Notes under the pieces: model-generated
Seen by the model: the letters and a program-made list of their open reading frames with translations, nothing else
Told to the model about the DNA's origin: nothing
The model's database searches: none
Shown: one piece after another, positions 14,229 through 60,908 of the stretch
How positions within the stretch are numbered: the first letter of the stretch is position 1
How the letters are laid out: every line of letters starts with the position of its first letter
DNA from: Eledone cirrhosa
Lineage: Eukaryota
Length of the DNA: 64,000 bases
Direction of reading: 5' to 3'
NCBI GenBank assembly: GCA_964016885.1
Contig: OZ024742.1
Location: 171,306,001-171,370,000, forward strand
Program-made: the position numbers and the translations under genes

Positions 14229-15757
14229 TAAAATAACAGAAAAGTTTAAGCAAAGCATCGCTGCTTTCACCCTTAACGGGATCTTCTGAAACTAAAAAAA
14301 ATCAATCTGTGAAGGCAGAAGTAAATAATTCGAAAAACGTTGCAACCGAAGGAAAACAGGAAGACTATATTTTGGTTGCTGAAGACGTTCCCTGGCAATG
14401 AACGGAAAAAAAGCGAGGATAATACGTCGTTATGTGGATCGTAGAGAACAAATACACGCAAAGACAAAACCGCGTTTATGGTATAAATGAAGTGGTATAA
14501 GTGAAGGAAACCGAATGATTCTCGGCTTCGGAGTTACGAATGATGTAAATAAATTAGTAGAACGAAAATGACAGAGGTTATTAAAGTAATAATAATTAAA
14601 TATATACATACACACATCTATATACGTACATACACGTGCATATGCGAAAACGCATGCCATGCATGCAAAATCATGCACCTACACATAAACACGCGCACAC
14701 ATACGAACGTATACACCAGATACACATATAAAATATATGTGTGGTATGTGTATACATATAATTATATAAACGTATATAACACTCGCACACACACATACCT
14801 ACAGGTAAATACACATATGTTCACCAAACGTACATATATCAAAACTCAATGTAAACATATACACATCATACATACGTGCAAACACGCACACACGCATACA
14901 CACACAAAAACGAAATACACATAACCATATAGACACATACCAATATATATAATATATATACCTATAACAAATGCAAGCATATATACGTACGAAAAAATAT
15001 ACGTAACTCCACAAAACATACAAATAAGTAATGGTATAAACATAAAATATACTTAGCTACCACCCGTGAGGGTATAATGTGGGGCTGTAATACAGGAAAA
15101 TGTTATGCAGTTTGTGTTTACAAGCCGAAATTGCCTCAGAATTTTTGTTTAAGATGTGATCATTGGCGTAGAGTAGTTCCAGGCTTCAGCGGCGAAAAGA
15201 TCGCATGGTCTTTTATTTCCGTTATACGATCTAGCTTTAGCTAGGATCGCCCGGTGAAACCTATATTGGGTGTGGTTGTCTTTTAGATATAACCTGAAAG
15301 TGACGTCATATTCCTTCTTAAAGGGTTAAGAAAAGAATGGGTGTGCATGTTAAGACACTGCTTGAATCTATTGGCGGTTAACCCTATGTAGGCCCTACTT
15401 GACGTGGGCGTTTCGACTTTACATTTGTAGACAATGTTCCTGGAGAGGCATTTCCCGGATAGAGGGCAGTCAATCCGATTCCTACAATTAGAGTTAGTAC
15501 TAGCTACAGGGTTGCACAGGTTACTACGGCTAGGTAATTTAGCTAAAGTTGAAGCAGTGATGTTATGTTCAAAGTTAGGAGTCGTGGAGTAAGATATTTT
15601 AATGTTATTTCTATTAAAAGAAGTTTTATTATATTTATGTGCCGAGGGGAAATGCTTCTTAATAAGGCAGAGAAAGATCTTAGCTAATGGTGTGGCCACC
15701 TCCATATTATATGGTGGGTTATACCATATAATGCGTCGGGATCTATTTTTCCTAGGT
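14222..15757 (-). mobile_element. Penelope-like element, Naiad-type 3' part: decayed GIY-YIG ORF end, 3' UTR, hammerhead, AATAAA and (TA)n
   Basis: RRIIWYNPPY..HFP..FNRNNIKISYS; NCR....CPLSGKCL..NIVYKC.V......YIGLT; frameshifted CDL...LNKNSEAISACKH; CAGAAGA hammerhead at about 14243-14293. Confidence 0.8.
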
Positions 15758-15775
15758 GAATATATATATATATAA

Positions 15776-15956
15776 TAGTAGAACAGTGGAGGGTTATATC
15801 CGTAGTAGTAAAACACTCAGTCCCTGGGACGAGTTTGGTAGAAGTATTTCCAAAACAGTTAGTTCACCATTACCGAGGACAATTGTTTCACCTTATTCGG
15901 ATAAGATGAAACAATTGTTCTCGGTAATGCTGAACTAACTGTTGTGGAACTACTTA
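15776..15956. mobile_element. Fold-back two-arm insert with hammerhead 3' half (GAAAC-AATT-GTC) between (TA)n tracts
   Basis: 15842-15897 is inverted at 15900-15955; the minus arm continues to 15776. Confidence 0.75.
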
Positions 15957-19028: not shown

Positions 19029-19430
19029 AAGTTATATTTAAAATTGTTGGGTTACAACTAGTAAATATTTATAACTGATATAAAAGCACTCGACAAATAT
19101 TTGGAGTATATTTACAATATTAAATAAATGGAAAACTATATTTATAAAACCATATTTATTTCATTATATATATTTCGGGGATATCATATTAACAATATGC
19201 TATGCCTTCATCAGACAAAATACAATATAAACAGTTTTAAACTTTAGCGTAAACCTCTCCAAATGAAGTTGATGTTTATTACGGTATGTCGAATATATTT
19301 ATCTATAAAACTGTTTATATTGTATTTTGTCTGATGAAGGCATAGCATATTGTTAATATGATATCCCCGAAATATATATAATGAAATAAATATGGTTTTA
19401 TAAATATAGTTTTCCATTTATTTAATATTA
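19022..19430. mobile_element. Two-arm PLE-like insert with hammerheads at 19158-19221 (minus) and 19324-19387 (plus)
   Basis: ATTTTGT-CTGATGA-AGG..CATATT(gtt)AATATG..CCC-GAAA-TATATA-TA-ATGAAAT; arms 19116-19238 and 19307-19430. Confidence 0.85.
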
Positions 19431-25820: not shown

Positions 25821-25840
<20 letters not shown>

Positions 25841-25844
<4 letters not shown>

Positions 25845-27053
25845 TAATATTAATAAGAGGTATTCCAAATTTGTCTGATTTACTCGTTTTATTTACAATC
25901 CTTTAAAATTTATAATGGTATTATAATGAAATAGTATGATAGAATATTAAATTCTAAGTGTTAATTGAACAAGTACTTTCATGCTTTCGCAATCTTCAGT
26001 TTCATAATATGTGGTGACAGTAAAGTTTGCAATTTTCAACTGTAATGAGATGGGTAAATTTTCTACATTATATACAGTGAAAAGTGGCTCCAGAATGCTA
26101 AATCTTGCAAACTGTCTCTCCAATTCACAAAAGAGATGAGTAGGACCAAATTACTATTCCTAGATATAATGATAATCAAAAACGACACCACCATTACCAC
26201 GGATATATATTATAAACACACAGACACCCATCAATATCTGCCTAGCCAGAAGAATTTGTACCATTGTAGAAGATACGAATACCAGGTACAAACGGCTAAC
26301 AGTACTAAGAGAATTTTTTCCTCAAACAAAAATACCCATCTCTACTTATAGAAAATGGCATACAGCGGGCTATAAAAATACCTATACAACAACTTAGGAC
26401 AACCCAAGGAAGAAGAAACCAAGAACTGGTCATACCATTTATAATGACACACAACCCATGTCACCAGAATATCTTCAACACTGCCAAAGCAAACCTACCG
26501 ATCATTGCTCAAAGTAATGAATTAAAAGGCTTAATCACAGATCGATCTTTGACTCTTAGTAAAGACAGCCAAAAACAATTTGAAGCAATTACTAACAAAA
26601 GCAAAGTTTGACCTTAACAACAAAGACCAATCATTCACTGTATCTAAATGCAATGATAGTCGATGTGGCACATGTCATTCCATACAACGCCGGTCAATAT
26701 ATGAAAACAAAAACTGGAAAAATATTCCCAAATGCAAATATGAACTGCAAAAGCAGAAATCTAATTTACTGCATTAAATGCCCGAATTGTGAAGAACTAT
26801 ATGTCGGTCAAACTGGAAATGCACTATCGGAACGCAGAGACCCAAATGTCTGTCAGATACCCCTAAGTAACCATCTAGCAACATGTGGTCAGGGAATATT
26901 TATAATATTCCCATTCTACAAATTACACAGCCCAAGTGAAATCAAGAGAAAAATCAAAGAAAATAATTTTATTGATAAATTCAAACCCAAGCTAAATGAA
27001 CAATAATAACGCTTAGGGGTATTACTTCTACTATGACTATGACTACGACCACT

Positions 27054-27089
<36 letters not shown>

Positions 27090-27545
27090 AATAATAATAA
27101 TAAAAGTGATGTTAATGGTGATAATTACTAGAAAATGCTATTTTCATCATTTCTAAAAATAGCAAAACAATTGATGCTTTGGATATGATTAATTATTGGT
27201 CGTTAGACATGCTCAACCAGCCGTGACGCTTAGACCAATCAGCTTTAGTAATTCAGTGAAACTACACACTGACTGGTCGAAATACAGTTTGCAAGATTTA
27301 GCATTCTGGAGCCACTTTTCACTGTATATAATGTAGAAAATTTACCCATCTCATTACAGTTGAAAATTGCAAACTTGACTGTCACCACATATTATGAACC
27401 TGAATATTGCGAAAGCATGAAAGTACTTAGAATTTAATATTCTATCATACTATTTCATTATAATACCATTATAAATTTTAAAGGATTGTAAATAAAACGA
27501 GTAAATCAGACAAATTTGGAATTCCTCTTATTAATATTAATATAA
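25841..27545 (+). mobile_element. Penelope-like element (Neptune-type), 5'-truncated and decayed, with an inverted 5' pseudo-LTR
   Basis: RT end LQFT.E....LLFLD..TDIYYKHTDTHQYL; KCNDSRCGTC; GIY-YIG NCKSRNLIYCIKCPNCEELYVGQT..KPKLN; 25841-26115 is the reverse complement of 27284-27543; hammerheads at 25966-26004 (minus) and 27395-27428 (plus, decayed). Confidence 0.9.
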
Positions 27546-27575
27546 TCCTCTATACACAATCATACAGACCCGTGT

Positions 27576-27842
<267 letters not shown>

Positions 27843-28275: not shown

Positions 28276-28321
<46 letters not shown>

Positions 28322-28324
<3 letters not shown>

Positions 28325-28511
28325 AACGAGTAGGACCCCGACGGCTGAGCTCAAGCCGTTTCGACCGCTAATTGCGTCCAGAATTAGCCGTCGAAACGGC
28401 TTGAGCTCAGCCGTCGAGGTCCTACTCGTTCCTATAACCCACTCTACTACCCTAAGTATTGAGTACTTTGGTGCGTTATGGTCCACCTGGTTCCTTACCA
28501 CATTTCCTTCG

Positions 28512-28514
<3 letters not shown>
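28322..28514. mobile_element. GACGGCT family fold-back insert in (TA)n
   Basis: Short minus arm 28322-28373 and long plus arm 28374-28514; same family as 29642 and 47231. Confidence 0.85.
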
Positions 28515-28814: not shown

Positions 28815-28861
<47 letters not shown>

Positions 28862-28870
<9 letters not shown>

Positions 28871-29595
28871 CGTAAAATAAGAAAATTATAAAATTAACTT
28901 ACTTACTAAAAAAGTAAGTTAATTTTATAATTTTCTTATTTTACGTCTCTCATATTATTGTTCTGCAACCCCATGCATTGAACCACATAGTTAATAAGAC
29001 AAAACCTATATATTTGCTAGCATTGATGTGCATCTGTGTGTATATAAATGTTACTAGATATAAATTCCTTATAATTATCTCCAATTCATTTATCGAGCAA
29101 TATTTGGCCATGACTGCTACTATGGTAGTAAGCTGGCCGCTGTCTTAATAACCACTCGCTTTCCACTGATTGACCTCGATGTCACGTGATTGATTCTTTT
29201 TGAATTTGCCACGGACGTAGAGGCAGTGATTTTCTCAATGGCTTGGAATCCAGTCCACGCATCGCTATTTCCATTCCACTGAATTATTTTTTTAATAAGT
29301 TTCCAGTGTCCTCGCTATGCCTGGAGACCTATACAGAAAAAGACTTTCCTGATGACGGAATGATTTTCTATAAATGTATTCGGAAAATATATTTACTCCA
29401 TTCCAGAAACTAATTAGTTGGAAGTGATTTTTTAGTAAATAAGTTAATTTTATAATTTTCTTATTTTACGTCTCTCATATTATTGTTCTGCAACCCCATG
29501 CATTGAACCACTTTGTTAATAAGACAAAACCTATATATTTGCTAGCATTCATATGCATCTGTGTGTATATAAATGTTACTAGATATAAATTCCTT

Positions 29596-29600
<5 letters not shown>
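28862..29600 (+). mobile_element. Retrozyme-like non-coding element: about 525-nt unit present 1.3 times plus a short inverted arm
   Basis: 28912-29073 is repeated directly at about 29437-29598; inverted arm 28862-28905; central hammerhead; flanked by (TA)n. Confidence 0.75.
29343..29425 (+). ncRNA. Type I hammerhead ribozyme
   Basis: ACTTTC-CTGATGA-cGGAATG..CATTCCa-GAAAC-TAATTA-GTT-GGAAGT; palindromic stem III; predicted cut after 29419. Confidence 0.85.
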
Positions 29601-29641
<41 letters not shown>

Positions 29642-29644
<3 letters not shown>

Positions 29645-29810
29645 CGAAGTAAATGTGGTAAGGAACCAGGTTGACCATAACGCACCAAAGTACTCAATAC
29701 TTAGGGCAGTAGTGTGGGTAATAGGAACAATTAAAACCCCGACGGCTGAGCTCAAGCCTAGCCGTCGAAACGGCTTGAGCTCAGCCGTCGGGGTCTTAAT
29801 TGTTCCTATA
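29642..29810. mobile_element. GACGGCT family fold-back insert in (TA)n
   Basis: Long minus arm 29642-29758 and short plus arm 29759-29810. Confidence 0.85.
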
Positions 29811-30760: not shown

Positions 30761-31114
30761 ATATATATATATATATATATACATACATATAGCAAACATG
30801 AACATGCAGACATATTTATATATATAATTATATAATTACATTGAAAAATGACAAATTTCAATACCTTAAACATTCGATGCAATGTGTAGGTATAAACTAT
30901 GTATAAAAGAATTTAAAGTCCCATACTACGAAACAAATAACATAACTTTAATAAATTGAGATGATCGAAAGATCGGCATAATACGTTCGATCAGGTTTAG
31001 AAAACTATGTGATGAATGCAGCACACGTTTCTGTTTGATTAGAGCTCATTAGGAAATTATATTTCGCAAGAATAGGAAGTGAGTTGTCTATCTGTCTATT
31101 TATCTGCCTGTCTG

Positions 31115-31178
<64 letters not shown>

Positions 31179-31183
31179 TTGTC

Positions 31184-31500
31184 TATATTGTTATTGCCTC
31201 CTCCTTATTGAGGACGCCTTGTTTTGTAAACTCCCCCCCATTGTACTTGTCCCACTTTTGATGCCCTGGTGGCAAATAAAAGAAACATATCTATCTATGT
31301 GTGAATGGGCCTTCATTCTACATCAGACTATAGGTGAGGAAGATGAAAGACCAAGGCAGCACCCCTTCTCTGTGCTCCTGAGGAGAAGGGTTGCACACTT
31401 TTTTCGGGGGTGTGTGCGACCCCCCAAGGCGCCTCCTCTCTATTGAGGACTTTGTTATAAATTTTATTTTTTGTTATATTTTATTTTATTTTTATATATT
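31184..31500 (+). mobile_element. Two short 3'-end fragments of the Tx1-clade LINE following (TATC)n
   Basis: 31184-31289 is the 3' terminus (..GGCAAATAAAAGAAACA|TATCTATC); 31298-31500 is the ORF2 end plus partial UTR matching 41252-41450. Confidence 0.85.
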
Positions 31501-32604
31501 GACGATGCGCAAACACGCGCTCAGGCTGCGGCATCTCTACGTATTCCTCACCGGACAACCGGTGTGGGCCCCGTTCGTGAGGCGAGCCTTCCTACGAGCT
31601 GCAGTCCTGGGTCAAGCAGAGACCGAGGAAAATGGGCGACTGGCACATCGAATGTGCTCAGGCGCTCACAGCCCTCTGGCAGGCGGACCCGGCGATCAGT
31701 GGAGACTCCACTTCGTCATTCTATAGAGGGTTGGTCCGCAGCAAGTGCGACGACGCGCTCGGTGAAACTCTAGGCGTGGAGGAAGATGAACTGGCCAGTC
31801 TGTTCGGTAGGACCTTCCGCCCGGGACCGATGGACAACTTCCAAAAGTCCCTGGCCTGGCAGTGCTACCGAGGAGCTCTACCAGTTCGAGACAAGCTCTA
31901 CAGACATGGGCGCCCGGGCAGGGACCCTGCAAAAAAGATCTGTCCGAGGTGCGTGCGAGACGAAGAAACCGTCGCGCACGCATTCATACACTGCCCGGGC
32001 GTCACTGACCTGTGGGGATATGTAGAACGACTATTGTCGCGGGTGGGACCAATCCAGTTGACCACCGAGTCCATTGTCATGATCAAACCGCCACCCTCCT
32101 TCAAAAACGAAGGAGAGGCGGTTTTCCTTTGTGTGATAGCTATGGCGAAAGAGGTTGTATGGTGGACAAGGTTGAAAGGGCTGAGGTCAGACACCTTTCT
32201 CTCCGGCCAACAACTGATTCTTTTTTTCAAATACCACTTTGGAAGAAGAATCAGGATGGAGAGAGAGGTGCTGTACCCCAGCAAGTTTTATGAAAGGTGG
32301 GTGAAAGTGGCGAGAATGGCCCGAGTGAATGGGCCTTCTCTCTATATCAGCCTGTAGGTTGAGGAAAAGGAGGAGGAGAGGAAAGGAGTACAAGCTCTTC
32401 GTACTCCTGGAGATGAGGGTTGCACATTTTTTTTCGAGGGTATGTGTTACCCATATAAACTGTCTCCCTCTATTGGGGAAAATCGACTAACTTTTAAATT
32501 CCATCTGTGATAACATTTTACACGTTTTTATTGTATGTAAACTTCCCCCTTTGTATTTGTCCCCTTCTTTTTTGCCCCTGTGGCTAATAAAGAAATCTAT
32601 CTAT
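31501..32604 (+). mobile_element. 5'-truncated Tx1-clade LINE, subfamily B (ORF2 C-terminus, distinct 3' UTR)
   Basis: ORF2 C-terminal CPRC..EETVAHAFIHC to the stop at 32357; ends GGCTAATAAAGAAA|TCTATCTATC. Confidence 0.9.
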
Positions 32605-35600
32605 CACAAGAAACAAAAAACTGTTAAACATTCTGTACAACAACAATCTAATAAAAACACAAGGGCCTAACTTCACCCAGGCAGGGGATTTCCCCCACCG
32701 CAAAATGATTAAGGCCCCACAGGACACCTATAAAACTTTAAAAAACAATTTTAAAGAGGACGTGGGTCCCCCCTGCGTCGGGCCCCTTAACCGCGTCCTC
32801 CTAAAAAACTATCCCACTCCCTCCCCAAACACCCACACAACTCGAAGCTCCCCAACCACACAACACACTGATGCCCCCACACTTCCACAAACCACCACCC
32901 CACCCAACAACCCATCCCCCACCCTAATGGAAATTGTGCAGCCCGATACCCGGGACGCAGAGAGGTAAGTGCCTTTTCTCTTCACCACCAACATGGCTAT
33001 GCTAAGAGTAGGCTGTTTAAATGCGCGTGGCCTGGGCTCAACTTGGAAGCAAGCAATGCTTCTAAATGACCTCAGGTCACAACGTATAGATGTGATGGTT
33101 ATTTGCGAGGCCCGGATCAGCAACGTGCGACAGCTGGCCCCCACCTTTGATGACTTTGAGATGCACGCATCTCTCTGTCAGCCCGGAGGTGGAGTGGAGT
33201 TGTCGTTCTGCTGCAAAAACATCTGGGTCTCGCAACACAGATGGTACATTTGGACCCGGAGGGTCGACTAGTGGTTCTGGACCTTGGCAGTGGTAAAGGC
33301 GGAGCGTTTAGGTTGGTAGCCGCCTACGGCCCTTTCGGGTCAATGCGGCCGGACTTCTTCCTTCGTCTGGAGACTTTTCTAGGGACGTCCCGCTCCTTGC
33401 TATTAGTGGGGGACTGGAATGGTATCCTAGATGCACGCTGGGACTACGTAGGGGCCTGCCCTGATAGAGAGGGGTGTAATAGCCTCAAAGGGTTAATCGG
33501 TCGATTTGACCTGGCCGATAGATATCGACTAGATTTTCCGACTGCGCCAACCTGGACTTGGGCAAATCGTAGCGGATCATCTAGGTCGTACCTAGATAGG
33601 TTCTTAGTTAGAATTAAGGATAAGGACTTTTTAAGTTGTCCAAAAATGCGCATGGTTGGCTATTCAGACCACAAATTAGTGACCTGCATGGTCAACCTTG
33701 ACAGAACTCATAGACAGGGCCCCGGTTACTGGAAGCTCAACTTGTCCTTGCCGGCAAGTAGAGCCTACAGGAATCGGATTAGTACGTTAGTTAAGGAACG
33801 GTTGACTGGAGCGATCGTCAACAGCAGGTGGTGGGTATCTCTAAAGAGAGAGATTAGAGTAGTCTCGATAGAATTTAGTAAGGTTCTAGCTGCGGATAGG
33901 AATAGGAAGGAAAGGGAGCTAATAGATAGAGTAGAAGAGGCAATTAGAAGCGGCGACGTGGCCAGAGTGCTAGCGTCGAGAACGGTTTTGAGCCAGTTTT
34001 TCGACGCGAAGCACGAAGGCTGCGTTGTCCGAAGTAAAATACGTGCTCTAGGGAACGAGGGGACCAAAGCTGTTAGCTGGGCCCGCGTGACAGAGGCCAA
34101 CAGTGGAACTAAATCCACCATCCGGTCTTTGCGAGACCTGGATGGACGGGCGATTCTTGAGCCTAAGCAGATGTGTGAGGCCTTTCAAAGGCACTTTGCC
34201 CGACTGTTCGGGAGGGGCGGGGAGCCGGTTGGGAACGTGGACTTCGGTCCATACCTCGACGGCCTGCCGCGCCTCTCGGACAGGGAGGCGAAGTCCTGCG
34301 AGGAGCCAATTTCGGCCGCTGAGATAGAGGACGTGCTGAGCCAATGCGGCAAACGCAAATCCCCGGGTCTCGATGGTCTTCCTTACGAATTATATCTAGC
34401 TATGCCGGACTTGTTCCCCGATCTCCTCGAGGCGGTCTACTGCAACTGGCAACAGAACGGGAGAATTCCCTGTACTGTGAACAAGGGCGTAGTCACGCTA
34501 GTGAGGAAGGACGAGAACAAGGGGGACGAAATAAGTAACTTCAGGCCCATAACTCTGCTAAATACAGAGTTACAGATTTTGGCCAACGTGCTAGCAAAGA
34601 GGTTGGCGCTTGTCGTGGGCAACCTGGTGGGAGATGCGCAGACATGCGCTATCCCGTCCAGGTCCATCCATGACAACCTCCACCTCATGCGATACATCAT
34701 AGAGAGGGTTGGGAACGAACCCGGCTTTGGTGGGGCTCTGATCAACTTGGATCAATCTAAGGCGTTCGATAGGGTCGACCATGGTTACCTGGATGCGGTG
34801 CTAGCGGCGGCAGGCTTCGGACCCGTTTTCAGGGGCTGGATCACTGCTATGCACAGCAGCCGCATCTGCTCTAGGGTCAAGGTGAACGGCTACCTCTCGG
34901 AGCCGTTCAAAATCGCGCGGTTCATCCGACAAGGGTGCCCTCTCTCCTCCCTTCTGTATGTGTTGACTCTCGAGCCACTACTGCGGAAGTTGGAGTTGTT
35001 GCAGGGCATCCCTTTGGAACCGGGATTGCGGAAAGCGGTGTCGGCCTACGCCAATGACGTGACAGTAATGGTGTCGACGGCCTCCGAAATCGAGGCGGTC
35101 GGCACCTTACTGGAGGAGTACGAAAAGTTCACAGGGGCTAAGCTGAACCGGGACAAGTCGATCGGTTTGCAACTCGGCACGTGGAGGGGCAGACCGATGC
35201 CCTCCGATGGCGTCGTCGGACGCTGGACGGAGGGCCCGGTGAAGTTGCTCGGGGTCTGGTTCGGACCGGACCTCCAGGTGGAGAAAAACTGGGCGGAGGT
35301 TACGAACAGGGTGTTTGCACTGACCCAGAAGTGGGCCAGTTGCAAACTATCCCTGAAAGGTCGGGCGGAGGTGGCGAACACCTACATAGCGTCCGTCATC
35401 TACTACCGCCTGACCGTAGTGCCCTGCCCAAGGGAAACCCTCACCAAGATGGAGCGCGCGCTCTTCCAATTCCTTTGGAAGAGGCGGGCTCCTATGGTGA
35501 GGAGATCCATCTGCTGTCAACACCCTTCGAAAGGAGGGCTGGGGATGCCGTGGCTAATGATGCGTAAACACGCATTAAGGCTACGGCACCTCTACGTATT

Positions 35601-36748
35601 CCTCACCGGACAACCAGTGTGGGCCTCGTTTGTGAGACGAACCTTTCCCAGACTCGTCTCACTCACCGAGCTGCAATCCTGGGTCAAGCAAAGACCGAGA
35701 AAACTGGGCGCCTGGCACACTGAGTGTGCCCAGGCGCTCACCGCCCTCTGTCAGGCGGATCCGGTTACCAGTGGAGACTCCACCGCAACATTATATAGAG
35801 GGCTGGTACGCAGCAGGTGCGACGACGCCCTCGGAGAAGCCCTAGACATGGAGGAGGACGAACTGGCCGGCCTGTTCGGTAGGACATTAAACCCGAGACC
35901 TATGGACAACTTCCAGAAGTCCCTGGCCTGGCAGTGCTACCGAGGAGCTTTACCCGTTCGAGAAAGGCTCTACAGACACGGGCGCCCGGGTAGGGACCCC
36001 GCCAAAAAGATCTGTCCCAGATGCGTGTGCGACGAGGAAACCGTTGCACACGCATTGGTACACTGCTCGGGCGTAGCCGATCTGTGGGGCTATGTCGAAA
36101 AACTGCTGTCAAGGGTGGGACCGATCCGGTTGACCACCGAGTCTATTGTAATGATCAAGCCGCCTCCCCCCTTCAAAGATGAAGCAGAGGCGGTGTTTCT
36201 GTGCGTAATAGCCATGGCGAAAGAGGTTGTATGGTGGACGCGTCTGAAAGGACTGAGGTCAGGCACCTTTCTCTCTGGCCAACAACTGGTCCGTTTCTTC
36301 CGATATCATTTCGGAAGAAGGATCAGGATGGAGAGAGAGGTGCTGCACCCCAGTCGTTTTTATGAAAGGTGGGTGAAAGTGGCGAGAATGGCCCGTGTGA
36401 ATGAGCCTTCTCTTTACATGAGCCTGTAGGTGGAAAAGAGGAAGGAACGAGGGAGCACCCCTCTCTGTGCTCCTGAGGAAAAGGGTTGCACACTTTTTTC
36501 GGGGGTGTGTGCGACCCCCCAAGGCGCCTCCTCTCTATTGAGGATTTTGTTATAAATTTTATTTTTTGTTATATTTTATAACAAGATCCTCTATTGAGGA
36601 TTTTGTTATAATTCTATTTTTTGTTATATTTTATTTTATTTTTATATATTGTTATTGCCTCCTCCCTATTGAGGACGCCTTGTTTCGTAAACTCCCCCCA
36701 TTGTACTTGTCCCACTTTTGATGCCCTTGTGGCAAATAAAAGAAACAT
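32605..36748 (+). mobile_element. Tx1-clade LINE copy C (5'-truncated within ORF1)
   Basis: Starts directly after TATCTATC, near-identical to copy D, ends in (TATC)n at 36749-36770. Confidence 0.95.
32993..36429 (+). pseudogene. Inactivated ORF2 (APE-RT-zinc finger) of copy C
   Basis: 1-nt deletion near 33190 relative to copy D; catalytic YADD reads YAND (35047-35058). Confidence 0.9.
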
Positions 36749-36770
36749 ATCTATCTATCTATCTATCTAT

Positions 36771-37824
36771 AAAAATCCACACCATCCTGCCGATTATGGA
36801 CATATGGTGGGTTTTGACAGGTTTTCTGGACCTGGAGGATGACATGCTGGTGTCCATGGGAAAGGCATCGGGTGACGCGTTCAGTGGAACGAGCCTCGAA
36901 CTTGTAGTTCAAATGAGGCCCGAAAGGATCGCCCAGATCCCTGAACGCGTCATACTGGATGATCTAACCTTCATCAACATTACCGTTGAGGGTAGACGGC
37001 CCTCGTGTTACCTCTGCGGAACCAGAGGTCACCTGAGGGCTGTCTGTCCCCAACTTAATAAGAAAACCCCAATCCTGCCCACACCACCAACAACTGCACA
37101 ACCAACACAATCACCACAACAACCACTACAAAAACAACCACCACAGCTCAAACCAAAACAAAACAATGTCCAACCCATCCCCTCCACTCAAAAAACAAAA
37201 ACAATTTCCAAAACACCCGTACCGCAAACACAACCCGAAAATATACCCCTCCCCTCCAACGCGGAAGATGACCCTAGTTCGTCGTCAGACGAGGAGGAGC
37301 ACTTCCACACAATCAAAAGAAAAAAAAGAAAACACACCTCAGACACACAAATGAAAAAAACCCCTCCCCAAAACATAACACTGACACCAACACAAAAGAG
37401 CTCACAACAGCAAACAAAAAACACCACACAAAAACAAAAACATGCATACACATACATAAATACAAGAAACAAAAAACTGTTAAACATTGTGTACAACAAC
37501 AATCTAATAAAAACACAAGGGCCTAACTTCACCCAGGCAGGGGATTTCCCCCACCTCAAAATGATTAAGGCCCCACAGGACACCTATAAAACTTTAAAAA
37601 ACAATTTTAAAGAGGACGTGGGTCCCCCCTGCGTCGGGCCCATTAACCGAGTCCTCCTAAAAAACTATCCCACCCCCTCCCCAAACACCCTCACAACTCC
37701 AAGCTCCCCAACCACACAACACACTGATGCCCCCACACTTCCACAAACCACCACCCCACCCAACAACCCATCCCCCACCCTAATGGAAATTGTGCAGCCC
37801 GATACCCGGGACGCAGAGAGGTAA
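36771..37824 (+). CDS. ORF1 (gag-like, N-terminally truncated): CCHC zinc knuckle and P/Q/T/K-rich disordered region
   Basis: CYLCGTRGHLRAVC fits CX2CX4HX4C, preceded by an L1/Tx1-like INITVEGRRP motif. Confidence 0.8.
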
Positions 37825-37848
37825 GTGCCTTTTCTCTTCACCACCAAC

Positions 37849-40800
37849 ATGGCTATGCTAAGAGTAGGCTGTTTAAATGCGCGTGGCCTGGGCTCAACTT
37901 GGAAGCAAGCAATGCTTCTAAATGACCTCAGGTCACAACGTATAGATGTGATGGTTATTTGCGAGGCCCGGATCAGCAACGTGCGACAGCTGGCCCCCAC
38001 CTTTGATGACTTTGAGATGCACGCATCTCTCTGTCAGCCTGGAGGTGGGGGTGGAGTTGTCGTTCTGCTGCAAAAACATCTGGGTCTCGCAACACAGATG
38101 GTACATTTGGACCCGGAGGGTCGACTAGTGGTTCTGGACCTTGGCAGTGGTAAAGGCGGAGCGTTTAGGTTGGTAGCCGCCTACGGCCCTTTCGGGTCAA
38201 TGCGGCCGGACTTCTTCCATCGTCTGGAGACTTTTCTAGGGACGTCCCGCTCCTTGCTATTAGTGGGGGACTGGAATGGTATCCTAGATGCACGCTGGGA
38301 CTACGTAGGGGCCTGCCCCGATAGAGAGGGGTGTAATAGCCTCAAAGGGTTAATCGGTCGATTTGACCTGGCCGATAGATATCGACTAGATTTTCCGACT
38401 GCGCCAACCTGGACTTGGGCAAATCGTAGCGGATCATCTAGGTCGTACCTAGATAGGTTCTTAGTTAGAATTAAGGATAAGGACTTTTTAAGTTGTCCAA
38501 AAATGCGCATTGTTGGCTATTCAGACCACAAATTAGTGACCTGCATGGTCAACCTTGACAGAACTCATAGACAGGGCCCCGGTTACTGGAAGCTCAACTT
38601 GTCCTTGCCGGCAAGTAGAGCCTACAGGAATCGGATTAGTACGTTAGTTAAGGAACGGTTGACTGGAGCGATCGTCAACAGCAGGTGGTGGGTATCTCTA
38701 AAGAGAGAGATTAGAGTAGTCTCGATAGAATTTAGTAAGGTTCTAGCTGCGGATAGGAATAGGAAGGAAAGGGAGCTAATAGATAGAGTAGAAGAGGCAA
38801 TTAGAAGCGGCGACGTGGCCAGAGTGCTAGCGTCGAGAACGGCTTTGAGCCAGTTTTTCGACGCGAAGCACGAAGGCTGCGTTGTCCGAAGTAAAATACG
38901 TGCTCTAGGGAACGAGGGGACCAAAGCTGTTAGCTGGGCCCGCGTGACAGAGGCCAACAGTGGAACTAAATCCACCATCCGGTCTTTGCGAGACCTGGAT
39001 GGACGGGCGATTCTTGAGCCTAAGCAGATGTGTGAGGCCTTTCAAAGGCACTTTGCCCGACTGTTCGGGAGGGGCGGGGAGCCGGTTGGGAACGTGGACT
39101 TCGGTCCATACCTCGACGGCCTGCCGCGCCTCTCGGACAGGGAGGCGAAGTCCTGCGAGGAGCCGATTTCGGCCGCTGAGATAGAGGACGTGCTGAGCCA
39201 ATGCGGCAAACGCAAATCCCCGGGTCTCGATGGTCTTCCTTACGAATTATATCTAGCTATGCCGGACTTGTTCCCCGATCTCCTCGAGGCGGTCTACTGC
39301 AACTGGCAACAGAACGGGAGAATTCCCTGTACTGTGACCAAGGGCGTAGTCACGCTAGTGAGGAAGGACGAGAACAAGGGGGACGAAATAAGTAACTTCA
39401 GGCCCATAACACTGCTAAATACAGAGTTACAGATTTTGGCCAAGGTGCTAGCAAAGAGGTTGGCGCTTGTCGTGGGCAACCTGGTGGGAGATGCGCAGAC
39501 ATGCGCTATCCCGTCCAGGTCCATCCATGACAACCTCCACCTCATGCGATACATCATAGAGAGGGTTGGGAACGAACCCGGCTTTGGTGGGGCTCTGATC
39601 AACTTGGATCAATCTAAGGCGTTCGATAGGGTCGACCATGGTTACCTGGATGCGGTGCTAGCGGCGGCAGGCTTCGGACCCGTTTTCAGGGGCTGGATCA
39701 CTGCTATGCACAGCAGCCGCATCTGCTCTAGGGTCAAGGTGAACGGCTACCTCTCGGAGCCGTTCAAAATCGCGCGGTCCATCCGACAAGGGTGCCCTCT
39801 CTCCTCCCTTCTGTATGTGTTGACTCTCGAGCCACTACTGCGGAAGTTGGAGTTGTTGCAGGGCATCCCTTTGGAACCGGGATTGCGGAAAGCGGTGTCG
39901 GCCTACGCCGATGACGTGACAGTAATGGTGTCGACGGCCTCCGAAATCGAGGCGGTCGGCACCTTACTGGAGGAGTACGAAAAGTTCACAGGGGCTAAGC
40001 TGAACCGGGACAAGTCGATCGGTTTGCAACTCGGCACGTGGAGGGGCAGACCGATGCCCTCCGATAGCGTCGTCGGACGCTGGACGGAGGGCCCGGTGAA
40101 GTTGCTCGGGGTCTGGTTCGGACCGGACCTCCAGGTGGAGAAAAACTGGACGGAGGTTACGAACAGAGTGTTTGCACTGACCCAGAAGTGGGCCAGTTGC
40201 AAACTATCCCTGAAAGGTCGGGCGGAGGTGGCGAACACCTACATAGCGTCCGTCATCTACTACCGCCTGACCGTAGTGCCCTGCCCAAGGGAAACCCTCA
40301 CCAAGATGGAGCGCGCGCTCTTCCAATTCCTTTGGAAGAGGCGGGCTCCTATGGTGAGGAGATCCATCTGCTGTCAACACCCTTCGAAAGGAGGGCTGGG
40401 GATGCCGTGGCTAATGATGCGTAAACACGCATTAAGGCTACGGCACCTCTACGTATTCCTCACCGGACAACCGGTGTGGGCCTCGTTTGTGAGACGAACC
40501 TTTCCCAAACTCGTCTCACTCACCGAGCTGCAATCCTGGGTCAAGCAAAGACCGAGAAAACTGGGCGCCTGGCACACTGAGTGTGCCCAGGCGCTCACCG
40601 CCCTCTGGCAGGCGGATCCGGTTATCAGTGGAGACTCCACCGCAACATTCTATAGAGGGCTGGTACGCAGCAGGTGCGACGACGCCCTCGGAGAAGCCCT
40701 AGACATGGAGGAGGACGAACTGGCCAGCCTGTTCGGTAGGACATTCAGCCCGGGACCTATGGACAACTTCCAGAAGTCCCTGGCCTGGCAGTGCTACCGA

Positions 40801-41286
40801 GGGGCTTTACCCGTTCGAGAAAGGCTCTACAGACACGGGCGCCCGGGTAGGGACCCCGCCAAAAAGATCTGTCCCAGATGCGTGTGCGACGAGGAAACCG
40901 TTGCACACGCATTAGTACACTGCTCGGGCGTAGCCGATCTGTGGGGCTATGTCGAACAACTGCTGTCAAGGGTGGGACCGATCCGGTTGACCACCGAGTC
41001 GATTGTAATGATCAAGCCGCCTCCCCCCTTCAAAGATGAAGCAGAGGCGGTGTTTCTGTGCGTAATAGCCATGGCGAAAGAGGTTGTATGGTGGACGCGT
41101 CTGAAAGGACTGAGGTCGGGCACCTTTCTCTCTGGCCAACAACTGGTCCGTTTCTTCCGATATCATTTCGGAAGAAGGATCAGGATGGAGAGAGAGGTGC
41201 TGCACCCCAGCCGTTTCTATGAAAGATGGGTGAAAGTGGCGAGAATGGCCCGTGTGAATGGGCCTTCACTCTACATCAGACTATAG
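37849..41286 (+). CDS. ORF2: APE endonuclease, reverse transcriptase and C-terminal zinc finger (L1/Tx1 clade)
   Basis: LNARGL, GDWN, LDRFLV, SDH, YWKLN; KSPGLDGLP, FRPITLLN, DQSKAFDRVDH, RQGCPLS, YADD; CPRC..EETVAHALVHC; ATG in CAACATGG context. Confidence 0.95.
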   Translation: MAMLRVGCLNARGLGSTWKQAMLLNDLRSQRIDVMVICEARISNVRQLAPTFDDFEMHASLCQPGGGGGVVVLLQKHLGLATQMVHLDPEGRLVVLDLGSGKGGAFRLVAAYGPFGSMRPDFFHRLETFLGTSRSLLLVGDWNGILDARWDYVGACPDREGCNSLKGLIGRFDLADRYRLDFPTAPTWTWANRSGSSRSYLDRFLVRIKDKDFLSCPKMRIVGYSDHKLVTCMVNLDRTHRQGPGYWKLNLSLPASRAYRNRISTLVKERLTGAIVNSRWWVSLKREIRVVSIEFSKVLAADRNRKERELIDRVEEAIRSGDVARVLASRTALSQFFDAKHEGCVVRSKIRALGNEGTKAVSWARVTEANSGTKSTIRSLRDLDGRAILEPKQMCEAFQRHFARLFGRGGEPVGNVDFGPYLDGLPRLSDREAKSCEEPISAAEIEDVLSQCGKRKSPGLDGLPYELYLAMPDLFPDLLEAVYCNWQQNGRIPCTVTKGVVTLVRKDENKGDEISNFRPITLLNTELQILAKVLAKRLALVVGNLVGDAQTCAIPSRSIHDNLHLMRYIIERVGNEPGFGGALINLDQSKAFDRVDHGYLDAVLAAAGFGPVFRGWITAMHSSRICSRVKVNGYLSEPFKIARSIRQGCPLSSLLYVLTLEPLLRKLELLQGIPLEPGLRKAVSAYADDVTVMVSTASEIEAVGTLLEEYEKFTGAKLNRDKSIGLQLGTWRGRPMPSDSVVGRWTEGPVKLLGVWFGPDLQVEKNWTEVTNRVFALTQKWASCKLSLKGRAEVANTYIASVIYYRLTVVPCPRETLTKMERALFQFLWKRRAPMVRRSICCQHPSKGGLGMPWLMMRKHALRLRHLYVFLTGQPVWASFVRRTFPKLVSLTELQSWVKQRPRKLGAWHTECAQALTALWQADPVISGDSTATFYRGLVRSRCDDALGEALDMEEDELASLFGRTFSPGPMDNFQKSLAWQCYRGALPVRERLYRHGRPGRDPAKKICPRCVCDEETVAHALVHCSGVADLWGYVEQLLSRVGPIRLTTESIVMIKPPPPFKDEAEAVFLCVIAMAKEVVWWTRLKGLRSGTFLSGQQLVRFFRYHFGRRIRMEREVLHPSRFYERWVKVARMARVNGPSLYIRL

Positions 41287-41669
41287 GTGAGGAAGATAAA
41301 AGACCAAGGGAGCACCCCTTCTCTGTGCTCCTGAGGAGAAGGGTTGCACACTTTTTTCGGGGGTGTGTGCGACCCCCCAAGGCGCCTCCTCTCTATTGAG
41401 GATTTTGTTAAAAATTTTATTTTTTGTTATATCTTATTTTATTTTTATATTTTGTTATTGCCTTCTCCTTATTGAGGACGCCTTTTTGTGTAAACTCCCC
41501 CCTTTGTACTTGTCCCACTTTTGATGCCCTAGTGGCAAATAAAAGAAATATATCTATCTATCTATCTACATATCTATATGTCTGTCTGTCTGACTGACTG
41601 TCTCTCTGCCTATCTGTTTATCTGTCTATCTATCTATTTTTCTATCTATCTACCTATCTATCTATCTTT

Positions 41670-42080
41670 CTAGATGCCTTTCTCTCCGGACAACAATTGA
41701 TTCCCTTCTTTAAGTATCACTTTAGAAGGAGAATCAGGGTGGAGAGAGAGGCACTGCACCCCAGTAAATTTACTGAAGGGTGGGTGAATGAAGCGAAAAT
41801 GGCCCAAGTGATTGGGCCTTCTCTGTTTATAAGCCTGTAGGTTGAGGAAGAGAGCAAAAGGAAGAAAGGAGCACTTGCACAACACGCTCCTGGAGTTGAG
41901 GGTTGTTCTATCGACGGGTTATTAAACAACCCATTTATGCCCCTCCCTCCATATTGGGGATTTCGATTGTTGTAATTGTTTTTATATTTTTTACACGACT
42001 GTATGTAAAATCCCCGGCATGTCTTTGTATTGTCCCCTTTTCTTGTGCGTCCTTGTGACTCATAAAGAAATATATCTATC
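41670..42080 (+). mobile_element. Tx1-clade 3' fragment, subfamily E
   Basis: Decayed ORF2 end FLSGQQLIPFFKYHF; ends ATAAAGAAATA|TATCTATC; lies in (TATC/TGTC)n. Confidence 0.85.
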
Positions 42081-42186
42081 TTTCTATCTGTCTGTCTGTC
42101 TATCTGTCTATCTGTCTATCTATCTAACTATCTAGCTGTCTGTCTGTCTGTCTCTCTGTCTACCTGTCTATCTGTCTATCTATCTA

Positions 42187-42480
42187 CCGAGTGAATGGGC
42201 CTTCTCTGTATATAAACCTGTAGGTTAAGGAAGATAAACAGAGGTAAGACGGGAACACCTACAACACGTGTTCCTGGTGTTGACGGTTGTTCTATCCACG
42301 GGGTGTAAAACAACCCCGCAGTAGCGTTACCCACCCCTAATGGGGATTTCAATTGTTTTATTTTATATAGTTTATTGTTATTTATCATTGTTAAAGATTT
42401 TATGTAAAACCTCCGCCGTCACGTCTTGTAATATCCCATTTTTGTGCGCCCCTGTGGCAAATAAAGAAAGATATCTATCT
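42187..42480 (+). mobile_element. Tx1-clade 3' fragment, E-related subfamily
   Basis: CGAGTGAATGGGCCTTCTCTG..GCCCCTGTGGCAAATAAAGAAAGA|TATCTATC. Confidence 0.85.
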
Positions 42481-42595
42481 ACCTGTTTGTTTGTCTTTCT
42501 GTATCTCTGTCTGTCTATCTATCTTGGTAGGTGTTAGAGATGACGAAGATCTTGGTCTCGAGTTCAATCTTGCCCAGGCACTACAAAGTATTTTA

Positions 42596-42920
42596 GTGGC
42601 GAGAATGGCCCGTGTGAATAGACCTTCACTTTACATCAGACTATAGGTGAGGAGATCAAAGATCAAGGGAGGACCTCCTCTCTGTGCTCCTGAGGAGAAC
42701 GGTTGCACACTTTGTTTCGGGGGTGTGTGCGACCCCCCAAGGCGCCTCCTCCCTATTGAGGATTTTGTTATAAAATTTTATTTTGTTATATTTTATTTTA
42801 TTTTTATACTTTGTTATTGCCTCCTCCTTATTGAGGACGCCTTTTCATGTAAACTCCCCCCATTGTACTTGTCCCACTTGTTGATGCCCTGGTGGCAAAT
42901 AAAAAAAAAATTATCTATCT
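42596..42920 (+). mobile_element. Tx1-clade 3' fragment, D-type UTR
   Basis: Matches 41236-41549; ends AATAAA(A)n|TTATCTATCT. Confidence 0.9.
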
Positions 42921-46493: not shown

Positions 46494-47215
46494 GTAGGAG
46501 GTGAGTTTTATTGTAGTACAATAAAGCAATGCAGATATCGGATAAGTAGCACTCTACGTTTTGTAGGACTGGAGTATAAATAATATATAAGATCAAAAGA
46601 TGGTTAAAAGAGTTCCATGTATTTTATTATGCGCATTTCAAAAACAAATATCATCATGCAATAACATTTGCGTTTTCGTCAGATAAAATAGGGAGACACA
46701 TATTATTAAACCCTTAAATATTATTCTTAATACATATTAACAATTTCTTTTCATCGCACATATTATTAAACCCTTAAATATACAAACCTTAATTTAACAT
46801 TATTCTAAATTTTTCTCTTCGTTAATTTTCAAATTCTTTTAATTTATATATTATCTTACAACGGTTTTTTAACTTCTCTCTGTAAAACAATATATTTTTC
46901 TCAGTTATAAAAGCTATCTCTCTCTCTCTATCACACATCTCTCCTCCTATCTCATCCTTCCTCATTATACTCCTCCCCTCCACTTTTTACTCTCATCTCC
47001 TCCTCTCCCCCCCCCTCCAATATCACACATCAATCTAAAACTACTTTTCATATGTTGATTTAAAACTGCACTATTCACAAATGTTTTTTAACCTTCATAT
47101 CATGTATCCCTATTTTATCTGACGAAAAGGCAAATGTTATTGCATGATGATATTTGTTCTTGAAATGCGCATAATAAAATACATGGAACTCATTTAACCA
47201 TCTTTTGATCTTATA
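46494..47215. mobile_element. Two-arm PLE-like insert with hammerheads at 46620-46690 (minus) and 47111-47181 (plus)
   Basis: TATTTTAT-CTGACGA-aAAGGCAAATGTTAT(tgcatg)ATGATATTTGTtCTT-GAAA-TGCGCA-TA-ATAAAATA; arms 46585-46698 and 47103-47216. Confidence 0.85.
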
Positions 47216-47230
47216 TATATATATATATAT

Positions 47231-47414
47231 AACGAAGGAAATGTGGTAAGGAACCAGGTGGACCATAACGCACCAAAGTACTCAATACTTAGGGTAGTAG
47301 AGTGGGTAATAGGAACAAGTAATACCCCGACGGCTGAGCTCAAGCCGTTTCGACGGCTAATTCTGGATTAGCCGTCGAAACGGCTTGAGCTCAGCCGTCG
47401 GGGTCTTACTTGTT

Positions 47415-47420
<6 letters not shown>
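47231..47420. mobile_element. GACGGCT family fold-back insert in (TA)n
   Basis: Long minus arm 47231-47367 and short plus arm 47367-47420. Confidence 0.85.
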
Positions 47421-57903: not shown

Positions 57904-58254
57904 AAAGCATGTATGTGTTTATGAATATACATCGATCGTGCCTCGAGTTGGTCGCCAGAGAAACGATTGTAATATGTCCAATAAATTCCATTCGTCGCAT
58001 CACTGATTCTCTTTTTTTCCGTGATATCATACTCTGCTCTAATAGAGCATCAAGTGATCAAACGACCTACCGCATACGGACGCTTTAAGCATCTACAACC
58101 AATTATATATATATATATATATATATAGTAATAATATTAAATTTGAAGACTAAAATCCAAAGAGGGATCGCGAAATAAATAAATAAATATATATAAATAT
58201 ATATATATATATACGATATTAACAAATGGAAACTATATTTATAAAACCATATTT

Positions 58255-58317
58255 ATTTCATTATACATATTTCAAGGATACCAAGTTAAATTATGGTATG
58301 CCTTCATCAGACAAAAT
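58255..58317 (-). ncRNA. Hammerhead of the 19022 family with a covarying stem II
   Basis: ATTTTGT-CTGATGA-AGGcATACCA(taatttaact)TGGTATCCTt-GAAA-TATGTA-TA-ATGAAAT. Confidence 0.8.
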
Positions 58318-58404
58318 ACAATATATACCAGTTTTATAAATAAACATTGACGTACCCTTTCAAAATGCGACCGTTACTTTTGGAAGACATCAATATATAT
58401 ATAT

Positions 58405-59593
58405 ACGTGGGAAAGTAAAAATCGGAGAATAGACCGTTAAAACATGTTTATTTAAAACATCACCTACGTACGTTTCGCCCAGTTGGGCTTCTCAAGGGCA
58501 TAAATAATCACAAGTGTTCCATATATAGTTCGGAAAGAGTTTTGGGGGTTAAATCTACATCAAGATTCATTGCTCGCAAAAATATCTTGTTTTGATTTTG
58601 CAGCAGGCCAAGGGAGGTAACTCTGGCCGGTGTTAGGGCAGTCTTTCCCGGATAATTGTTTTTTTCTTTTTTTTTTTCCGCATCCGTTTGTCTGAGGCTG
58701 GGTCTGGTATGCAAGGATTGTTTTCTGGGTGTTATTTTGCAGCGCCTGCCCGCCGGGGTGTTAGGACTTGTTGCAGGGAGATCCAGTGTACTATTTCACT
58801 CTTCATCCTTAACCCATCTAAAGAAGGAAATTTTTAAGCGATGTGTACAACTTATCGCTGTTTCATCTCTGCTGTTGATGAGCTCGTGGGGTGCAGTTAT
58901 GATGTGGTAGAGCTCCATGAGGCAAAGATCGCATTTCCTCTTGACTGCACCCCACGAGGTCATCAATAGCAGAGCTGAAACAGCGATAAGTTGTACACAT
59001 CGCTTAAAAATTTCCTTCTTTAGATGGGTTAAGGATGAAGAGTGAAATAGTACACTGGATCTCCCTGCAACAAGTCCTAACACCCCGGCGGGCAGGCGCT
59101 GCAAAATAACACCCAGAAAACAATCCTTGCATACCAGACCCAGCCTCAGACAAACGGATGCGGAAAAAAAAAAAAGAAAAAAACAATTATCCGGGAAAGA
59201 CTGCCCTAACACCGGCCAGAGTTACCTCCCTTGGCCTGCTGCAAAATCAAAACAAGATATTTTTGCGAGCAATGAATCTTGATGTAGATTTAACCCCCAA
59301 AACTCTTTCCGAACTATATATGGAACACTTGTGATTATTTATGCCCTTGAGAAGCCCAACTGGGCGAAACGTACGGGGGTGATGTTTTAAATAAACATGT
59401 TTTAACGGTCTATTCTCCGATTTTTACTTTCCCACGTTCTTACGCTTTGCTAACTCTCTAGCCCACTAAATATTAACACTTCGAATATTTAATACTGCCG
59501 GCACTAGTATCGAGCACCTTTGGCATACGCTACTTGGCAAATAACTATATGTATCACCTATCCCCCCTTTTTTTCTCTTTCTCGATACGTAAA

Positions 59594-59597
<4 letters not shown>
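58405..59597. mobile_element. Naiad-type PLE 3' end present as about 493-bp inverted arms, with U3-A8 hammerheads
   Basis: 58405-58897 is inverted at 58944-59437; KCDLCLMELYHII...LINSRDE....CTH is a GIY-YIG C-terminus; GCCC-TTGAGAA-GCCC(aact)GGGC-GAAAC-GTAC-GTA. Confidence 0.85.
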
Positions 59598-59974: not shown

Positions 59975-60391
59975 TATGTATACGTACATACATATATGTA
60001 TACTGACGTACAGTAGTATGTATATACATACATGCACACATGTAAGCATGTATATATGTATATATATACATGTACGTATACATTCTTATATTTAAGTATC
60101 AGCCGTATTAAGAGTGAGAAATGAAATTTCATGTTTTCCTTATATATATACATATATGTATATATATATATATATAGTTAAAAATGTACATCCATATATG
60201 TATACTGAAATACTTGTATGCATATGAATACACACACGTATACATATGTAGATGTACCAAGTCTTTCACTGGTTACTTTACTGTGAGTATCCAGCTATTC
60301 TGTATGTAAACACACAGACAAACCGGTTTTTAGAGTCATACTGGTTTTTGAGGAAACACCTTTCCTCTATTCTCCAGAAAGCCAGACAAGG

Positions 60392-60436
60392 AATATTGAA
60401 CTAGTTTCGTTGTTGTTACAACTCATCAGCAATATT
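60392..60436 (-). ncRNA. Minimal type I hammerhead ribozyme (inverted copy)
   Basis: Exact reverse complement of 60864-60908. Confidence 0.9.
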
Positions 60437-60863
60437 TACCTATCTACCGGCCTTTCTGGAGAATCGTAAAAGCACATATCGTTATATGCTTTTTCTATGA
60501 AAATTAGTAGTGGGCAGACTAATTTGCATAGAGTGTGAGTACGTACCGGTTCAACGGAGACGATAAAAACAAATAACGAAACGAAATTAAATTTCGTTTC
60601 ATTTGTAAATATGCATACTAGTATGTCAGTATACATATATGGATGTACATTTTTAACTTAATTGTTTAAGCGTCAGTCATACAAAAGTGAGTTACAAACG
60701 AAACGAAATTTAATTTCGTTTCGTTATTTGTTTTTATCGTCTCCGTTGAACCGGTACGTACTCACACTCTATGCAAATTAGTCTGCCCACTACTAATTTT
60801 CATAGAAAAAGCATATAACGATATGTGCTTTTACGATTCTCCAGAAAGGCCGGTAGATAGGTA

Positions 60864-60908
60864 AATATTGCTGATGAGTTGTAACAACAACGAAACTAGT
60901 TCAATATT
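60864..60908 (+). ncRNA. Canonical minimal type I hammerhead ribozyme
   Basis: AATATTG-CTGATGA-GTTGT(aaca)ACAAC-GAAA-CTAG-TT-CAATATT; palindromic stem III AACTAGTT; predicted cut after 60901. Confidence 0.92.

Follow-up and report, generated by a model that had tools for sequence, protein, structure and literature searches.

A 525-nt hammerhead-bearing element of Eledone cirrhosa with the insertion footprint of Penelope-like retroelements

Our analysis of a 64,000-nt stretch of the Eledone cirrhosa genome (contig OZ024742.1; hereafter the window) indicates, with a probability of about 0.8, that a 525-nt element within it represents one copy of a Penelope-like retroelement (PLE) of the non-autonomous type, which depends for its spread on the RT/GIY-YIG protein encoded by an autonomous PLE. 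The copy combines the marks of PLE-type insertion, namely a partial tandem with pseudo-LTRs, an inverted 5'-truncated copy, a tail at one end and a microsatellite target (Table 1). The first-pass annotation of this DNA had treated 'retrozyme' and 'PLE derivative' as opposites; a 2026 preprint argues that both are the same thing (Li, Clavereau and Pollet 2026, 10.64898/2026.07.22.740005).

Table 1. Features of the 525-nt element and its insertion site, in positions of the window
Feature	Position	Strand	Remark
Left (TA)n tract, inferred target	28816..28861		
Inverted 5'-truncated arm, ~52 nt	28862..28913	-	reverse complement of 29428-29479
Left direct-repeat copy	28912..29075	+	first base 17 nt past equivalent cut site
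Internal non-coding segment, 42% GC	29076..29342	+	occurs in other copies, divergent
Better-conserved box	29164..29205	+	depth peak in 4/4 runs
Type I hammerhead motif	29343..29425	+	predicted cut between 29419 and 29420; cut triplet GUU
Helix I, 6 bp	29343-48/29420-25	+	
Core CUGAUGA	29349-55	+	
Helix II base, 6 bp	29357-62/29399-404	+	closes 36-nt extension
Core GAAA	29406-09	+	
12-nt palindrome (helix III)	29408-19	+	possible pairing between two molecules, -10.8 kcal/mol
Right direct-repeat copy	29437..29600	+	contains end site A (~29480) and end site B (~29599)
Tail between end sites, ~119 nt	29481..29600	+	predicted 23-bp hairpin inside
Right (TA)n tract	29599..29644		

The main body of the element measures 689 nt, corresponding to 1.31 units of 525 nt, and begins and ends with the direct repeat that had been proposed for this locus. 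The two repeat copies are 164 nt long, 96% identical and spaced by 525 nt, and the six substitutions between them show that they are no assembly duplicate. The inverted arm was likewise found, although its right limit had been placed too far left, at 28905: it reaches 28913 and is 52 nt long. Counting a TA overlap, it matches 29428-29483 at 55 of 56 positions, and it is joined head to head to the main body with a 2-nt AA overlap. Its outer end coincides with site A (equivalent to ~29480), whereas its inner end lies 8 nt past the predicted ribozyme cut. As previously noted, (TA)n tracts border the element on both sides. The tail contains its hairpin at 29534-29587 (also present at 29009-29062), ending 11 nt upstream of site B; three of four frequent variants in this hairpin retain the pair via A-U or G.U changes and one breaks it. 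A general rule that insertions end ~10 nt past a hairpin was not supported, fitting 3 of the 12 ends examined against a background of ~20%. The 525-nt unit has a GC content of 34.9% and, folded as a circle, reached a z of -4.0 compared to 40 shuffles, which we count in favor of the non-autonomous PLE reading. A motif scan located CACGTG, which we take to be E-box-like, at 29183-88 inside the better-conserved box, and this box might have a promoter role. Two inverted hairpin repeats flank the element (28320-28512 and 29645-29810), but a composite element delimited by them was rejected, as the two are 78% alike and their family has other copies in the window.

The reported lack of an ORF was reproduced, the longest stop-free run in six frames being 76 codons. 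A Pfam search of all six frames of the 525-nt element returned a best E of only 0.065, a tRNA scan gave no match, and the ORF combining RT and GIY-YIG that marks an autonomous PLE is absent. Minus-strand letters at ~29022-29047 resembled RT-thumb codons of a Neptune-like remnant (tblastx E 0.57; BLASTN 22/26, E 0.004 in a four-sequence set), but were dismissed as a CA/TG-rich chance similarity; because the Pfam copy used also missed a true thumb piece, the Pfam test of this resemblance is weak. The element is also unrelated to the second ribozyme unit of the window, a 466-nt unit at 60609-61074, as the first-pass annotation had seen: the best BLASTN matches span 10-12 nt (E 0.05-0.5). The 'same architecture' ascribed to both holds for a similar, not an identical layout, since the inverted arm of the 466-nt element is 433 nt long and contains a second ribozyme. 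This element (60176-61203) joins the 433-nt arm to a main body of 1.28 units, has two hammerheads and, as a circle, folds very strongly (z -10.3). It also carries the octamer ATGCAAAT at 60771, presumably similar to the promoter of snRNA type in newt satellite 2. Directly left of the 525-nt element, the minus strand of 28749-28773 matches the 3' half of the 466-nt ribozyme at 21 of 24 positions and is probably a decayed related insertion.

We recovered the proposed hammerhead as a type I motif with a long helix II and a palindromic helix III; it is, however, not central, ending 11 nt before the right repeat and thus outside the duplicated part. The motif has the CUGANGA and GAAA boxes, the A15.1-U16.1 pair, U as H17 and an open helix I of the type I core. 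A strict descriptor, composed after the motif had been seen, had three matches in the window, and 60 block-wise dinucleotide shuffles gave none. Several features would argue against catalytic activity. The 10.1-11.1 pair that should close helix II next to the core is replaced by C29356 opposite A29405, with six pairs beyond. A29405 looks conserved, given that a contig of organism D covering 29379-29511 has three differences, all elsewhere, and a U.U mismatch at the 10.1-11.1 position is known from the axolotl hammerhead (Cervera and de la Pena 2020, PMC7229834). The minimum-energy fold is more stable than the hammerhead fold by 2.5 kcal/mol, and the 93-nt ribozyme region folds like its shuffles (z -0.31), which counts against both an active ribozyme and the PLE reading. 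Rfam gave no match to the element at gathering score, and the 77 weak matches below it were hairpin- and AT-driven and included no hammerhead family. The GUU cut triplet belongs to the same set of adverse features. Among the 40 of 119 read-variant rows that were listed, four variants fall in the ribozyme, of which T29353C affects the unconstrained position N7 of the core and the others affect distal helix II; for these rows, the chance that four variants avoid the 44 constrained of 83 positions is roughly 0.05. Conservation of the 10-bp distal part of helix II was doubted in view of A29378C, present in 145/151 and 136/138 reads of run X9, and this part is probably not conserved. As the copy contains one ribozyme in its 1.31 units, and not the two complete ribozymes of an active retrozyme, no monomer bounded by two cuts could arise from it alone.

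Far from being a one-off, the 525-nt unit belongs to a family with many copies, seen in two organisms or more. Parts of it occur in 8 of the 11 public sequencing runs listed, from four studies; no RNA run is among those listed as containing it, which has no bearing on expression. For four of the runs, we compared the material with one repeat-free turn of the unit (28990-29514). In organism A, 1522 of 16.5 million contigs of run X1 aligned to the unit, with depth in 29 of 30 bins, and 5696 of 12.5 million raw reads of run X9 covered all 30. Organism B contributed 52 contigs (29/30 bins) and organism D four (15/30 bins). Depth across nearly all bins implies that the internal segment belongs to the family. 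This segment (29074-29340), of which the first-pass annotation had asked whether it varies between copies, is present in other copies and diverges in sequence. In X9, 87% of the aligned material continues into unlike sequence, and, among the 24 of 237 loose ends listed, those at 29037 and 29164 resemble diverged versions of the internal segment. One organism D contig matches 29180-99 and 29398-422 across the same 198-nt gap, diverged in between, which would point to a conserved length. Contigs of organisms A and B cross the tandem junction 29075/29076 with fewer than 31 letters on one side; by a standard of 31 letters on each side, no listed contig bridges it, the best, from X4, having 16 and 12 letters (22 of 1604 pieces listed), and none of those listed spans the whole unit. 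Pattern scans of metagenome contigs and of viral contigs yielded no match.

The same survey showed that both ends of the insertion recur. In X1, unit sequence is joined to (TA)n behind 29480 in 17 contigs and behind 29073 in two, and both ends figure among the 24 of 237 loose ends listed. The first coincides exactly with the arm's outer end and the second with the right-hand end of the main body, giving two fixed sites ~119 nt apart. As 40 of the 119 variant rows and 24 of the 237 loose ends are listed, core changes or ORF continuations may sit among the rest. A further X1 contig (depth 7) links 29070 to 29478 on opposite strands, site-B end to site-A end; two complete insertions lying side by side, or one that is closed on itself, would produce such a joint.

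The layout with the arm at the proximal and the main body at the distal site is common to five of the six window families examined, including a broken coding element; in the exception, family six (46575-47227), both ends lie at one site. The tail measures ~119 nt in the 525-nt unit and 79 nt in the 466-nt unit and, judged by eye, ~77 nt in the hairpin repeat at 28320, 29645 and 47232, ~160 nt in the element at 58405-59597 and ~35 nt in the broken coding element (25840-27580). The latter displays, at 26116-27580, a C-x4-C-x2-C motif, a GIY-YIG match below cut-off (E 0.0024) and what we take to be RT-thumb-like residues. A C-terminal nuclease with a C-x4-C-x2-C motif fits Neptune or Nematis as described by Craig et al. 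(PMC8557442), and the element would accordingly be classed, on its sequence, as a broken Neptune-like PLE. Its inverted arm matches at 257 of 261 positions, and a decayed hammerhead-like half lies near 27270-27290. On this footing, the first-pass proposal that two independent families use the same integration route is sustained for unrelated sequence, common footprint and multi-copy status, but not for the novelty of the route, which is the published PLE footprint.

The window holds further elements of this sort. The head-to-head element at 58405-59597 contains a hammerhead with a U3-A8 core variant (58465-58495, minus strand), and more hammerhead-bearing inverted elements lie at 46575-47227, 19150-19430 and 58200-58350. 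Very short insertions, at 28320-28512, 29645-29810, 47232-47420 and 2033-2089, consist of two head-to-head hammerhead 3' halves; two copies of this hairpin family flank the 525-nt element in the same TA-rich cluster, and one family copy has a ~77-nt tail. The minus strand of 15283-15816 is presumably a second PLE-like nuclease remnant; Pfam gave no match there. The interval 31000-42900 contains a young L1/Tx1-like element (APE, RT, zf-RVT) in tandem copies that share 98.6% of their letters over 3.6 kb. Within the window, where two PLE remnants were compared, we found no autonomous PLE with a homologous terminal repeat.

The anatomy closely resembles that of EN+ PLEs. According to Craig et al. 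(PMC8557442), PLEs insert with a bias for microsatellites and form partial tandems that have a truncated copy in inverted orientation beside them and a tail of 30-40 bp; Arkhipova et al. (PMC3846280) describe the same layout, together with mobilisation in trans via the terminal repeats, and suggest self-priming as the source of the inversion. For the anole PLE, Frangieh et al. (PMC11167929) report that the protein cleaves AT-rich DNA on both strands and extends each of them, that its two internal start sites on the RNA define the tail, and that the reaction does not require ribozyme cleavage in vitro. The 525-nt element shares with EN+ PLEs, especially Neptune, the partial tandem, the inverted 5'-truncated copy, the one-end tail and the microsatellite target, and its hammerhead lies shortly upstream of both ends. 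It differs in having no RT/GIY-YIG ORF and no homologous helper in the window. The tail of ~119 nt versus the described 30-40 nt and the position of the ribozyme outside the duplicated part count against the PLE reading. With PLE hammerheads, for which a palindromic helix III, single copies and inverted pairs have been described (Cervera and de la Pena 2014, PMC4209133), the motif has in common the type I topology, the long helix II and a palindromic helix III suited to dimers; unlike them, it has C.A in place of the conserved G10.1-C11.1 (or an extra base on each side) and a variable 36-nt helix II extension. Chlamys non-autonomous elements such as MRC1 are similarly ORF-less, with pseudo-LTRs and head-to-tail insertions, but Chlamys elements are algal and most are without canonical hammerheads (PMC8557442). 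A squid genome paper lists 235 hammerhead loci, given there without analysis (PMC6962438). We found no description of the 525-nt family in the literature covered, mostly open papers, and the main text of the 2026 preprint does not discuss tails or inverted arms (10.64898/2026.07.22.740005).

Combining these data, we propose the following course of events. A more-than-unit RNA would be transcribed from a tandem source locus and, as in known families, its hammerhead may cut as a dimer via the palindromic helix III, generating cut ends, monomers or circles. A PLE protein should then cut the (TA)n tract and use each of the target ends to prime cDNA synthesis, starting within the RNA at sites A and B, located ~61 nt and ~180 nt past the ribozyme cut. 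Whereas the two ends are visible in the DNA, we infer the priming enzymology from the anole PLE. The site-B product would be the 689-nt body of 1.31 units, passing through one intact ribozyme and halting 17 nt before it reached the next cut site; the site-A product would be the ~52-nt arm, which halted 8 nt before a cut site. Joining of the two over the 2-nt overlap accounts for the observed anatomy, in an order of events that is our reconstruction. The helper was probably Neptune-like, a tentative assignment. Self-priming could also produce the inverted arm. The cDNA ends thus come within 17 and 8 nt of a cut site, which suggests a template 5' end made by the ribozyme. Inner ends at a ribozyme-like half also occur in the hairpin family and the coding remnant; as those of the 466-nt element are not near the cut, we regard the ribozyme-made 5' end as a lead only.

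The most serious alternative, possible though clearly less probable than the broader PLE reading, is an expressed non-LTR retrozyme in the strict sense, in which tandem arrays yield a 525-nt monomer that is circularised and copied 1.31 times around the circle. This was the model of the first-pass annotation and is a special case of the PLE explanation. Cervera and de la Pena (2020, PMC7229834) use the term for type I hammerhead repeats of 150-450 bp that are arranged in tandem and give rise to circular RNAs, name PLEs as their likely helper and provide precedents in mussel, coral and axolotl; Li et al. (2026, 10.64898/2026.07.22.740005) extend the families to 51-972 bp, with many monomers and homology to PLE terminal repeats. 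The 525-nt unit resembles metazoan retrozymes in being small, non-coding and AT-rich (below the 45% GC limit), with a type I hammerhead, multiple copies, self-pairing as a circle and PLEs in the same genome, and it falls within the size range of the preprint. The more-than-unit length with permuted ends, seen also in the 1.28 units of the 466-nt element, the low GC content, the circle fold and the same spacing in the diverged organism D contig all agree with this model. On the other hand, the unit exceeds 150-450 bp, and we did not find its inverted arm, its pair of fixed ends or its junctions with (TA)n in the retrozyme descriptions covered from these two sources. An active element needs two ribozymes according to Li et al., who observed cleavage in one of nine tested, so that eight of nine predicted Xenopus retrozymes did not cleave in vitro; the present copy has one, no two-ribozyme tandem was seen, and the C.A at the helix II base and the GUU cut site are unfavorable. 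Moreover, the anole PLE inserts from uncut RNA (PMC11167929), and a linear template with a cut 5' end accounts at least equally well for two cDNAs that both stop 8-17 nt before the cut. The 6 differences in 164 repeat positions fit later mutation or two templates and are non-decisive for a circular template. Because this copy does not pass the two-ribozyme test, we class it among non-autonomous elements of PLE type, and it may or may not be a retrozyme in the strict sense.

It is unlikely that the element is instead the terminal repeat of an autonomous coding PLE, its 525-nt spacing stemming from a local deletion or template jump and most copies being truncated ends of the coding element. In the anole PLE, ribozyme and RT start sites lie at the junction of repeat and ORF, so truncated ends look like the 525-nt element (PMC11167929). 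X9 depth past the cut is ~4-6 times that over the ribozyme, possibly through RAD bias, and 24 of the 237 loose ends are listed. The loose ends that are listed, however, are (TA)n, A/T-rich junctions or diverged unit, none recognisably ORF. Furthermore, organism A and B contigs cross 29075/29076, if with one side shorter than 31 letters, the organism B pieces together cover almost all of the circle, and neither Pfam nor BLAST detected a coding trace. Finally, a DNA-level rearrangement or assembly artefact (fold-back, TA-tract slippage) of an inert repeat, its ribozyme motif being dead or due to chance, is highly improbable, for although the window is AT-rich and microsatellite-dense, Rfam silent and the local fold weak, the arm ends where other copies end, unrelated families have the same layout, the descriptor is absent from 60 shuffles and the repeats differ at six sites.

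Animal elements with a hammerhead are a kind already known, and the present family with its explicit footprint is a modest addition to them. In the papers cited here, the link between retrozymes and PLEs rests on co-occurrence and terminal-repeat homology (PMC7229834; 10.64898/2026.07.22.740005), and the function of hammerheads in PLEs is described as unclear (PMC8557442; PMC7229834; 10.64898/2026.07.22.740005). The value of this copy lies in direct insertion-site evidence for that link: an ORF-less hammerhead unit bearing the full PLE footprint is direct, if incremental, evidence of mobilisation in trans. With several such families in one genome, two questions become countable from DNA: do the 5' ends of cDNAs cluster where the ribozyme cuts, and is a circular RNA or a linear multimer used as template? 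More speculatively, and with the odds against it, the footprints may record how PLEs handle ribozyme RNAs in vivo, with double priming of fixed asymmetry (arm proximal, body distal), tails of 80-160 nt possible in ORF-less families, and both cDNAs of the 525-nt family running off at a ribozyme-cut 5' end. If so, the template would be a linear, partly cleaved multimer and not a circle, and hammerhead cleavage, though dispensable in vitro, would shape PLE insertions in vivo.
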